Virus record (IMG/VR): IMGVR_UViG_2645727970_000008
From: a virus
Taxonomy: Duplodnaviria; Heunggongvirae; Uroviricota; Caudoviricetes
Reading direction: 5' to 3' (one strand)
Length of the DNA stretch: 15,836 nucleotides
Made by a program: the position numbers and the translations under genes. The notes under the pieces were generated by a model. It made no database searches and was not told the DNA's origin. It saw nothing but the letters and a program-made list of their open reading frames with translations. Positions 14,371 to 15,739 of this stretch are shown piece after piece. The stretch's first letter is position 1, and every line of letters begins with the position of its first letter.

Positions 14371-14392
14371 ACCGCCCTTTCGGGCGGCCTCC
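14371..14392 (-). repeat. Copy 2 of conserved leader hairpin (minus strand GGAGG-CCGCCC-GAAA-GGGCGG-T), 7 nt upstream of the ATG at 14364
   Basis: 22-nt block identical to 15435-15456. Six-bp all-GC stem with a GAAA tetraloop between an SD-like GGAGG and the start codon. Confidence 0.8.
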
Positions 14393-14416
14393 TGATGTTC
14401 TGAGGGTGCAGAAATC

Positions 14417-14465
14417 CCTCCGGTTAAGGATTAAATTTTTAACAGAGCTAAATTTAATTATTCAG
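14417..14465 (-). repeat. Copy 2 of an approximately 50-nt conserved intergenic block (about 85 percent identical to 15682-15732)
   Basis: Plus-strand cctccggttaaggattaaatttttaacagagctaaatttaattattcag against cctccagttaaggattaaattttatttacagtgctgaacttaattattcag. It overlaps the last codons and stop of the upstream gene. Confidence 0.8.
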
Positions 14466-14814
14466 TTCTGGATTTTGTCGCCCTGCGTATCCGCGCTTTC
14501 GCGTTACGCTCAATCTGAATTAGCTTTTCTATATTTTTTCGCCTTTCCCGCTCCTCCTGACGCAAGAGCCTTACATCATCTGCCAGTCTGGTTTCTCTTT
14601 TCGCCACAGAGAGCATCCAGTCAAATGGTTCCACAACTGCACCGCAGATTTTACAGCGGACCTGACGCTCTTTTTCGTCAACCCGGACAGAGGCGTGATG
14701 ACAATATGGTCTTTCCGATGGCTCATAAAGAAAATTAACCTGATTACGAGGGTCATCCTCTTTTACCGGAAATAAAACGATATTGCTTAACTCATCCTCT
14801 GGTTTTATTTCCAT
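14458..14814 (-). CDS. Hypothetical protein with zinc-ribbon-like motif and basic C-terminus (118 aa from ATG 14814)
   Basis: Start at the internal ATG preceded by GGAGAGGAG (track ORF starts at 14871). Motif CHH-x16-C-x2-C, then an Arg/Lys-rich tail. Confidence 0.55.
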   Translation of the reverse strand: MEIKPEDELSNIVLFPVKEDDPRNQVNFLYEPSERPYCHHASVRVDEKERQVRCKICGAVVEPFDWMLSVAKRETRLADDVRLLRQEERERRKNIEKLIQIERNAKARIRRATKSRTE

Positions 14815-14935
14815 GCTCCTCTCCTTTGATGCGAATGCCAGCGGTAATTGAAGCCTGATAGCTAATTTCACTCACAGTACCGCCTCCTGAAAATTTAATG
14901 AACAATTCAATACGTTCTTTGGTAATAGTGGTCAT
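14792..14935 (-). CDS. Possible small ORF (47 aa), translationally coupled on both sides
   Basis: ATG 6 nt after an AAGGAG that overlaps the upstream stop. Its stop overlaps the start of the next gene. Below the track cutoff. Confidence 0.35.
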   Translation of the reverse strand: MTTITKERIELFIKFSGGGTVSEISYQASITAGIRIKGEEHGNKTRG

Positions 14936-14945
14936 GTGTTACTCC

Positions 14946-15209
14946 TTAACCCGCAGTGCTTTCAACTGATGAGGGGAACAAAATCTTTTCATCAAACCCT
15001 GCATTCATATCATGAACAGCAACACACCAATCCATCGACGAACGATTATCAAGAGCCTCCATGATTTCATCCATGCGGCGTAGGTCATACAGGTAAATGC
15101 TTTTATCGCCAATGGTGTAAAAGCCAATTTTTTTCGGTGATGGACAGCGATCAAGAACTTCCTGTAATTCGTTCAACCATGCCCGTTCTTTTTTTGTCAA
15201 AGTTGCCAT
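14946..15209 (-). CDS. Hypothetical protein (87 aa from ATG 15209)
   Basis: ATG with AAGGAAAA Shine-Dalgarno lying in the last codons of the upstream gene. The track ORF extends to 15299 through an alternative start. Confidence 0.55.
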   Translation of the reverse strand: MATLTKKERAWLNELQEVLDRCPSPKKIGFYTIGDKSIYLYDLRRMDEIMEALDNRSSMDWCVAVHDMNAGFDEKILFPSSVESTAG

Positions 15210-15210
15210 A

Positions 15211-15429
15211 TCAGTTTTCCTTATACGGATTAATTTTATTGTGCAGTGTGTTGAATGACGCCCATACCACGTCGTTATACAATTCAGTAACTGGCTCAAT
15301 TATTTTCCCGATTGCCCAGACAAAAATTAGAGGGGATATCGGTATCATCAATACGATAAACAGAATGAGAAACAAAAATTCTGTCGCCCTACTTTTTTGC
15401 GGATATTCTTTTCTGAATAATGTAGTCAT
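15211..15429 (-). CDS. Small single-pass membrane protein (72 aa)
   Basis: ATG ORF with one strongly hydrophobic segment (FLFLILFIVLMIPISPLIFVWAIG). Preceded by the GGAGG-hairpin leader. Confidence 0.55.
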   Translation of the reverse strand: MTTLFRKEYPQKSRATEFLFLILFIVLMIPISPLIFVWAIGKIIEPVTELYNDVVWASFNTLHNKINPYKEN

Positions 15430-15434
15430 TTCTT

Positions 15435-15456
15435 ACCGCCCTTTCGGGCGGCCTCC
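15435..15456 (-). repeat. Copy 1 of conserved leader hairpin (GGAGG-CCGCCC-GAAA-GGGCGG-T), 6 nt upstream of the ATG at 15429
   Basis: Identical 22-nt block to 14371-14392. Confidence 0.8.
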
Positions 15457-15461
15457 CGACA

Positions 15462-15674
15462 TTAATCGTTGTGGTAACTCATGGCTTCATTTGCAGCATC
15501 AACCGGATCAACCTCCCACCAGCAATAATTTGGTGCGTTTCCTTCAGGTGTCCACGGTTCCAATTCATTTTTTGCCACATTCTCGTCGCCAGTAATTTTA
15601 AAAATCTGCTCAGAGAATTTTTTCACCCACTCGTTATATTTTTCAGTGTTAATAATTTTCTGTGTATTTGACAT
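15462..15674 (-). CDS. Small acidic hypothetical protein (70 aa)
   Basis: ATG with GGAGGT Shine-Dalgarno at about 8-nt spacing, supplied by the conserved intergenic block. Confidence 0.6.
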   Translation of the reverse strand: MSNTQKIINTEKYNEWVKKFSEQIFKITGDENVAKNELEPWTPEGNAPNYCWWEVDPVDAANEAMSYHND

Positions 15675-15681
15675 AGATATA

Positions 15682-15732
15682 CCTCCAGTTAAGGATTAAA
15701 TTTTATTTACAGTGCTGAACTTAATTATTCAG
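15682..15732 (-). repeat. Copy 1 of the approximately 50-nt conserved intergenic block; carries the stop of an IS1-interrupted upstream gene and the SD of the 70-aa ORF
   Basis: See copy 2 for the alignment. Confidence 0.8.
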
Positions 15733-15739
15733 ATTTGGA

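Follow-up and report, generated by a model that had tools for sequence, protein, structure and literature searches.

A repeated intercistronic element of Escherichia lambdoid prophages as a candidate portable split ribosome binding site and recombination linker

Overview of the element

Analysis of a 15,836-nucleotide stretch of viral DNA (IMG/VR record IMGVR_UViG_2645727970_000008, referred to below as the window) showed that two sequences repeated between its small genes, a short hairpin module and an AT-rich block, are copies of a conserved junction element that in Escherichia lambdoid prophages stands between small accessory genes of the early operons. The explanation that we favor, with a probability of roughly 0.55, is that the element is a portable split ribosome binding site (RBS) that also acts as a linker for homologous recombination. 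In its 3' module, a strong Shine-Dalgarno (SD) sequence, GGAGG, lies against a GC hairpin that is predicted to be very stable and has GAAA as its loop; the start codon comes after a further 6-11 nt of A/U-rich spacer, so that folding away of the hairpin would bring an SD that is 22-23 nt off in the linear sequence to within 6-7 nt of the AUG. The 5' module, which is the block, contributes stop codons in all three frames, an AT-rich spacer and another GGAGG. Because the same 23-110 nt are found between many different genes, the element would also serve as homology for cassette exchange; phage or host recombination could use this homology to swap, delete or insert cassettes, and each downstream gene would keep a working translation start after the exchange.

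The window represents the nin-like accessory region within a lambdoid prophage's early-right operon, and the minus strand is the coding strand for every gene in it. The order on that strand is IS1, block copy B, g1, hairpin copy B, g2 (DUF4014), g3, g4, g5, block copy A, 24 nt, hairpin copy A, g6 (DUF7167) and g7.

Sequence, geometry and predicted folding of the hairpin module

The two hairpin modules and the genes that adjoin them are as follows.

14370..14392, minus strand: hairpin module copy A; GGAGG at 14392-14388, hairpin at 14387-14372, then TA.
15434..15456, minus strand: hairpin module copy B; GGAGG at 15456-15452, hairpin CCGCCC-GAAA-GGGCGG at 15451-15436, then TA.
15462..15674, minus strand: g1, 70 aa, function not known, phrog_4659; block upstream and hairpin module downstream.
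15211..15429, minus strand: g2, DUF4014, 72 aa; residues 1-72 match positions 1-72 of the Pfam DUF4014 profile and 1-72 of 72 in phrog_1832.
14182..14364, minus strand: g6, Pfam DUF7167, 60 aa; phrog_1997 aligns over 1-57 of 57.

The original prediction, made from the sequence alone, had reported a pair of identical 22-nt elements here, and the repeat was confirmed: all 23 nt of 14370-14392 recur unchanged at 15434-15456, and the longer stretches 14370-14395 and 15434-15459 agree at 25 of 26 positions. The 16-mer CCGCCCGAAAGGGCGG was found twice, on the minus strand, when up to 3 mismatches were allowed, against an expectation of 0.12, and none of 200 shuffled sequences contained two or more matches.

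After the 6-bp GC stem with its GAAA loop, copy B continues with TAAGAA and the ATG of g2 (15429), and copy A with TAGTTAA and the ATG of g6 (14364). The linear distance between SD and ATG, first given as about 24 nt, is in fact 22 nt at site B and 23 nt at site A; the distances of 6 and 7 nt left after hairpin formation stood as described. Both start codons are forced, because in-frame TAA codons lie within two codons upstream (two codons before the ATG of g2 and immediately before that of g6), and the start methionine of each protein is position 1 of the Pfam and PHROG profiles. No SD is present in the post-hairpin spacers TAAGAA and TAGTTAA.

RNA structure prediction, one of the checks proposed with the original prediction, placed the hairpin in the minimum free energy and centroid structures of every context that was folded. 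Its predicted probability was 0.985 and 0.998 in the 155-nt native contexts, and its predicted energy was -12.4 kcal/mol for 6 bp or -14.4 kcal/mol for 7 bp including a G-U pair. On the upstream side, in all 35 occurrences that follow a gene of the g1 family (family U2), the stop codon of that gene lies 5 nt before the GGAGG; the hairpin of site B stands 10 nt past the gene stop, without an AU-rich block.

Evidence on the proposed split ribosome binding site

The genes that follow the hairpin were compared with their relatives that lack it. By inspection, 12 of the 14 distinct post-hairpin spacers contained no SD-like tetramer. The hairpin-free relatives of DUF4014 genes (10 of 71) carry a canonical contiguous SD 5-6 nt from the start, such as aaaGGAGAgtgatGTG. 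The same is true of hairpin-free genes in the downstream family D0, a loose cluster that takes in g3- and g4-like genes as well; an example of their contiguous SD is gttAAGGAGtaacacATG. Among the loci examined, all 142 DUF7167 relatives had the hairpin, in its standard or in a variant form. Within each gene family the spacing between hairpin and start codon is constant, at 6 nt for DUF4014, 7 nt for DUF7167 and 8, 9, 10 or 11 nt for others, and the GGAGG always adjoins the 5' side of the stem. A hairpin-spanned ribosome binding site is a plausible and the most economical explanation of this predicted anatomy, and we infer that the hairpin would promote translation.

Some database entries for DUF7167 proteins (P0002, P0003 and P0006) are 87 aa long instead of 60, the gene call having been extended upstream through the hairpin element, which suggests that gene finders miss a start codon behind a split ribosome binding site. 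A leader-peptide open reading frame (ORF) running through the hairpin was also considered and was rejected, since inspection revealed that its frame and stop are not kept across the spacer variants.

The stem was further compared in an alignment of 57 distinct composites, which pooled loci from the exact-hairpin scan and from the block-anchored scan. In this alignment 97% of the stem cells were paired. Wobbles produced by C-to-U changes accounted for 15 cells, A.C for two and breaks of the loop-closing pair for four, and a double change from G-C to A-U was seen once. The commonest stem variants were C-to-U changes that preserve G.U pairing, namely CCGTCC, CCGCCT and CCGTCT, which occurred in 15 of the 57 composites, and disruptive changes were rare. 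G-to-A changes were common at unpaired columns of the same alignment, which argues against a pure C-to-T mutational bias. In an independent metagenome sample of 121 copies, anchored upstream of the hairpin, CCGTCC was present 14 times and CCGCCT five times. The stem variants are suggestive of selection on the sense-strand hairpin.

The AT-rich block and the HP1 hairpin

The features of the block, the gene that ends in it and the hairpin predicted at its 3' end are as follows.

14410..14472, minus strand: block copy A (M1); CTGAATAATTAA (14465-14454, g5 stop included), AT-rich spacer, AATCCTTAACC, first GGAGG at 14421-14417.
15675..15739, minus strand: block copy B (M1); CTGAATAATTAA (15732-15721), AT-rich spacer, AATCCTTAACT, GGAGG at 15686-15682, 7 nt, ATG of g1.
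14458..14814, minus strand: g5, 118 aa; last codons and TAA stop (14460-14458) within block copy A.
14402..14420, minus strand: HP1, weak predicted hairpin, GAGGG:CCCUC, -5.8 kcal/mol, sequestering the first GGAGG.

The block repeat of about 50 nt proved to be real and slightly longer than noted (14410-14472 versus 15675-15739); its copies align as two ungapped pieces, matching at 90% of 30 nt and 81% of 37 nt, with a 2-nt indel between them. It opens with CTGAATAATTAA, which provides stop codons in all three frames, and in the examined loci the genes of four unrelated upstream families have the first TAA of this sequence as their stop codon, all reading it in one frame (...CTGAATAA or ...CAGAATAA), while others stop further upstream. 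Block variants then have an indel-bearing AT-rich spacer followed by AATCCTTAAC(C/T)GGAGG. The reported overlap of the block with the stop codons of upstream genes holds for copy A, which contains the TAA of g5, and fails for copy B, which has no upstream gene in the window because IS1 (15741-15836) abuts it; in intact relatives copy B stands 40 nt past the stop of DUF977.

The two copies lead into their downstream genes in different ways. Block copy B runs directly into its own GGAGG and the start of g1, the ATG following 7 nt on, and this GGAGG serves g1. Between block copy A and the hairpin module there are 24 nt; the first GGAGG of this copy has no start codon after it, and the conserved GAUUUCUGCACCCUCAGAACAUCA links this first GGAGG to the second GGAGG and the hairpin.

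The near-palindrome to which the original prediction drew attention did not survive as a feature of the block, since the AT-rich middle carries indels, the 3' half of the palindrome varies and no conserved structure was found. A conserved RNA structure in the AT-rich block was likewise rejected, RNAalifold giving only -1.9 kcal/mol.

In the composite of block and hairpin module, at 14402-14421 and 14388-14392 of the window, a conserved anti-SD-like CACCCUC lies between the two GGAGG motifs and is able to pair with either of them; the CCCUC of HP1 is predicted to pair alternatively with the second GGAGG. HP1 was 98% paired across the alignment with no covariation, and the candidate for a compensatory change in it turned out to be a U.U mismatch. 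The double GGAGG with CACCCUC, as modeled, may be a translational switch or the relic of a deleted g1-like gene.

Distribution of the element and its role at gene junctions

A search of other prophages, which had also been proposed as a check, revealed that the elements are widespread at gene boundaries and are not local duplications. The exact 18-mer was found in at least 120 IMG/VR contigs, and the 111-nt composite was located 5029 times, distributed over 2695 of the 5426 complete E. coli genomes, with one to nine places per genome, almost all of them chromosomal. The phage database contained the composite in only 21 records, of which 20 are Escherichia or Stx-converting phages and one is labeled Actinobacillus, and the metagenome copies, judged from contig names that state a source, came mostly from human-gut and food assemblies. 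The element is present in ATCC 25922 and O157:H7 and absent from the Rac, Qin and DLP12 prophages of K-12; the DUF7167 homologues searched displayed no diversity outside E. coli.

For analysis of the junctions, 171 occurrences were gathered from viral contigs irrespective of their flanks, and loci from a 14-base-anchor scan of genome contigs (L171-L290) were left out as chance matches only. In these occurrences, at least eight unrelated upstream ORF families and at least six unrelated downstream families were joined in 26 combinations. Column conservation was approximately zero upstream of about -100, climbed through the block from CTGAATAATTAA, was maximal over the GGAGG and the hairpin, and collapsed about 25 nt past the hairpin, after GGGCGGTA, with unrelated sequences on both flanks. 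The element was always in the sense orientation, the copies in all multi-copy loci were direct repeats, and a plausible downstream ORF followed about nine in ten occurrences.

Other hairpin sequences in an SD-hairpin-ATG arrangement were also sought in 3.7 Mb of fetched loci, and essentially only this hairpin family was found. An unrelated GC-rich viral contig (L041) carries GGAGG and CCGCCCGAAAGGGCGG 10 nt before an unidentified 194-aa ORF, with a short upstream ORF running through the hairpin, which could be due to chance or to independent use of the module.

Reconnection relative to phage ArgO145

The genome of phage ArgO145 contains the same genes and elements in a different arrangement. 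Its early-left operon has the order g5, block, g1, hairpin, DUF7167 and g7, and in a separate place it has an Ea22-like gene, block, HP1, hairpin and DUF4014. The homology segments are as follows.

Window 15739-15434: homologous to ArgO145 2214-2519.
Window 15459-15180: homologous to ArgO145 3566-3842.
Window 14842-14414: homologous to ArgO145 1844-2274.
Window 14465-14370: homologous to ArgO145 3501-3591.
Window 14395-13968: homologous to ArgO145 2494-2921.

Every switch between segments falls inside the 26-nt hairpin element or inside the block, and the post-hairpin spacer (TAGTTAA or TAAGAA) goes along with the gene that it precedes. If the two direct hairpin copies of the window recombined, the product would have exactly the g1-hairpin-DUF7167 joint of ArgO145. 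The earlier suggestion of a modular, recombinogenic arrangement of gene cassettes is strongly borne out by these breakpoints and by the many unrelated gene pairs that the same element joins. At the level of sequence comparison the cassette-junction and recombination reading is well supported, and the exchanges at the elements would be driven by homology.

Alternative explanations

Several observations weigh against a split ribosome binding site that doubles as a linker. With a single compensatory pair, covariation in the stem was not significant, the observed values being reached in 135-384 of 500 shuffles, and among the 121 metagenome copies one disruptive stem type, CCGCCA/GAGCGG, occurred four times, all other disruptive types being singletons. 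The second GGAGG is predicted to be unpaired at only 26% at site A, versus 73% at site B, because CCCUC can pair with GGAGG there. In downstream family D3, the exception among the post-hairpin spacers, UGGAGAUAAUA-AUG places a GGAG of its own 7 nt from the start and after the hairpin, so that the split SD is dispensable in this family. A hairpin of -12 kcal/mol at 6-7 nt from the AUG could inhibit initiation instead of promoting it. Because the sequences all come from E. coli prophages that are close relatives of one another, their conservation may partly reflect recent spread and gene conversion and not purifying selection. Lastly, Red-beta is reported to have a minimal efficient pairing segment of 23-27 bp and RecA one of 31-34 bp (PMC3945230); the 23-nt identity common to the two hairpin copies of the window falls within the range of Red-beta, at the lower limit for Red-type recombination.

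The lack of significant covariation and the SD of family D3 also speak for the strongest competing explanation, which we regard as unlikely and still the best of the four considered. It holds that the element is only a recombination linker or hitch-hiker, kept similar by exchange and gene conversion, and that the hairpin either does nothing to help translation or damps possibly toxic accessory genes, whose translation would be weak or coupled to that of the gene upstream. The combinatorial junctions and the breakpoints inside the element require no RNA function, and a start codon with stable structure close to it is usually inhibited, as discussed in PMC7297116. Such an explanation does not account for the constant sense orientation, for the family-specific distance of 6-11 nt to forced starts, for the GGAGG that always adjoins the 5' side of the stem, or for the finding that hairpin genes mostly have no other SD and hairpin-free relatives have one; moreover, the stem variants of appreciable frequency keep sense-strand G.U pairing.

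An mRNA processing or stability element was considered as well. The hairpin would then be a barrier to 3' exonucleases for the upstream cistron, or a 5' stem-loop that protects the downstream cistron after RNase E cleavage in the AU-rich block, giving segmental stability to a long early transcript. An intercistronic GC-rich GNRA hairpin beside an AU-rich stretch, with no U-tract and hence not a terminator, would suit such a function, and intercistronic stabilizing stem-loops are well known. This explanation is improbable, since it does not say why an invariant GGAGG adjoins the stem, why the start codon is kept at a constrained distance and why another SD is missing, and since the AU-rich block is absent from site B, where the hairpin follows the gene stop so closely.

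Very improbable is an operator for an RNA-binding protein, either a boxB-like site for N-type antitermination or a site for a translational repressor over the ribosome binding site. The stem GCCC-GAAA-GGGC does resemble the boxB of lambda (GCCCU-GAAAA-AGGGC), and a hairpin within a ribosome binding site is what is found in phage coat-protein and RegA-type operators. Against this, the loop is a tetraloop and not a pentaloop, a conserved boxA upstream is absent (the GCTCT of the candidate in copy A, AGCTCTGTTAA, is not kept among the block variants), and copies recur inside early-left and early-right operons, far from promoters, so that a lambda-type nut site composed of boxA and boxB was rejected. 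No match to the Rfam 15 covariance models at E values up to 1 overlapped 14365-14472 or 15430-15739.

A promoter in the block or a terminator or attenuator in the hairpin, which would make each cassette its own transcription unit as in T4-type phages with a comparable position and length of the repeat (PMC2839356), is scarcely credible in spite of the AT-richness of the block, since the consensus scan called no promoter-like or terminator-like site in or beside the elements, inspection of the block variants showed that the best -10-like sequence, TAAAAT, has no -35 and is missing in copy A, and the sequence after the GC-rich hairpin, UAAGAAAUG or UAGUUAAAUG, lacks the U-tract of an intrinsic terminator. 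The promoter activity that the original prediction had envisaged for the 50-nt block accordingly found no counterpart in the scan or among the variants.

Genomic setting

The prophage is truncated by IS1 directly upstream of block copy B.

15741..15836, no strand assigned: IS1 end, 100% identical to IS1 or IS1B copies on more than 5000 plasmids.

An intact relative is found in E. coli FDAARGOS_1059, with 100% identity over 2040 nt. In this strain the region is preceded by cro, ydaT-like, O-like, DnaC-like, DUF1627 and DUF977 genes and followed by hokD, DUF968, rusA and a Q-like gene. The position of IS1 is 40 nt past the stop codon of the DUF977 gene that stands there in intact relatives. Since IS1 replaces everything upstream, the replication and immunity genes of the prophage have either been lost or been separated from it.

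The g5 protein gave a weak match to Zn_Ribbon_TF (zinc ribbon) of 21.6 bits, under the 29-bit cutoff. The translations of g6 (DUF7167) and g7 (14013-14364 together) are small and rich in acidic residues. Small acidic proteins that phages make early can function as DNA mimics or in anti-restriction; the Pfam and PHROG family annotation of g6 and g7 contained nothing to back either role. The ORFs after g7 (13760-14016) look broken, consisting of 40-aa and 65-aa pieces, and their counterpart in the intact relative is annotated as 'frameshifted; internal stop'.

Further downstream, a hok/sok-type toxin-antitoxin locus was found at 12937-13261, composed of a sok RNA (13090-13261, 106.7 bits) and a hokD-like ORF (12937-13092), and is followed by a sub-threshold isrK-like match (12847-12928) with a terminator-like hairpin at 12868-12851. 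Genes for prophage tRNA-Arg(TCT) and tRNA-Met(CAT) are located at 8595-8671 and 8769-8844, downstream of the Q-like gene and a DNA methylase gene (8894-9943). This is the site where Stx phages carry stx, and toxin genes are absent here. A strong match to the small RNA family STnc100 (7709-7898, minus strand, 132 bits, E 1.7e-29) lies between these tRNA genes and a NanS-p-like esterase gene.

Implications

A broader and more tentative proposal, which we hold to be possible and not probable, is that E. coli lambdoid prophages run a cassette system that is free of integrase. The split ribosome binding site and the multi-frame stop block would act as a universal adaptor at a linker of 23-110 nt, where any small accessory gene would enter by Red/RecT-type annealing, be cut off from upstream translation and be translated on its own, and CACCCUC may add a translational switch.

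If the hairpin does bridge a ribosome binding site in the way put forward here, the element would be, beyond the two T4 genes, the first split ribosome binding site to take the form of a reusable module and not of a one-off, and split ribosome binding sites would stand at thousands of junctions in about half of the complete E. coli genomes, including those of O157:H7 and ATCC 25922. It would also offer a testable mechanism for a long-standing question in lambdoid phage evolution, namely how mosaic joints can fall at gene boundaries without killing expression, account for systematic errors in start-codon calls, such as the annotation of DUF7167 genes 27 codons too long, and provide a compact, context-insulated ribosome binding site part that could be borrowed.

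Comparison with known systems

The split translation initiation regions (TIRs) of phage T4 genes 38 and 25 (Gold 1988; Nivinskas et al. 1999; Malys and Nivinskas 2009; reviewed in PMC3014915 and PMC7297116) are the first close parallel. The hairpin module described here fits the geometry of these sites, as the original prediction had proposed. In T4, the split TIRs of genes 38 and 25 were shown by experiment (PMC3014915, PMC7297116): the hairpin reduces the distance between SD and AUG from 22 to 5 nt in gene 38, the case that our sites match, and from 27 to 11 nt in gene 25 (PMC3014915), and mutations that destabilize the hairpins lower translation of both genes (PMC3014915; also PMC7297116). 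In both systems the linear gap is too long, exceeding about 15 nt (22-23 nt here, as against the 22 nt of gene 38), and is shortened by a stable hairpin to a distance within the functional 5-11 nt, here to a predicted 6-7 nt, and in both the site stands at an intercistronic junction of a phage operon. The T4 sites, however, are single, gene-specific and conserved with their gene, whereas here a near-invariant 23-nt module precedes at least six unrelated families and has thousands of copies in E. coli; the sequences are unrelated, and the function is predicted here and experimental in T4.

The promoter-early stem-loop (PeSL) cassettes of the T4-type phages RB49 and phi1 (Arbiol et al. 2010, PMC2839356) are the second close parallel. 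They too consist of a repeated intergenic motif of about 100 bp in plastic, ORFan-rich regions, with the order of upstream stop codon, AT-rich stretch, G/C stem-loop, SD and next start, and where related phages differ by insertion, deletion or replacement, the boundaries of the difference lie in the repeats. PeSL cassettes have a strong sigma-70 promoter and a terminating stem-loop, neither of which was detected here by the consensus scan. Moreover, the stem-loop here stands between SD and AUG, and the host phages are temperate lambdoid phages and not T4-type phages.

In the modular theory of lambdoid evolution, short conserved sequences at module boundaries were proposed as foci of homologous recombination that reassort the modules; such linker or boundary sequences are reportedly treated by Susskind and Botstein (1978) and, for HK620, by Clark et al. 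(2001). The element described here, a short conserved sequence at gene boundaries, fits this idea. To our knowledge, the architecture of a split ribosome binding site is not part of these linker descriptions, and a literal search for the exact 16-18-nt hairpin strings on both strands found none in the papers of the searchable library.

The cassettes also resemble integron attC cassettes in being promoterless small ORFs with a repeated hairpin-forming element, in a single orientation and with combinatorial shuffling. Unlike in integrons, the window contains neither an integrase nor attC architecture, and the element consists of 23-110 nt of conserved primary sequence in the mRNA sense; the simplest explanation of the exchange is homologous recombination, either general or by phage functions. 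The element differs from the T4 sites as a portable and near-invariant module that serves many genes, and from PeSL in having no detectable promoter or terminator.

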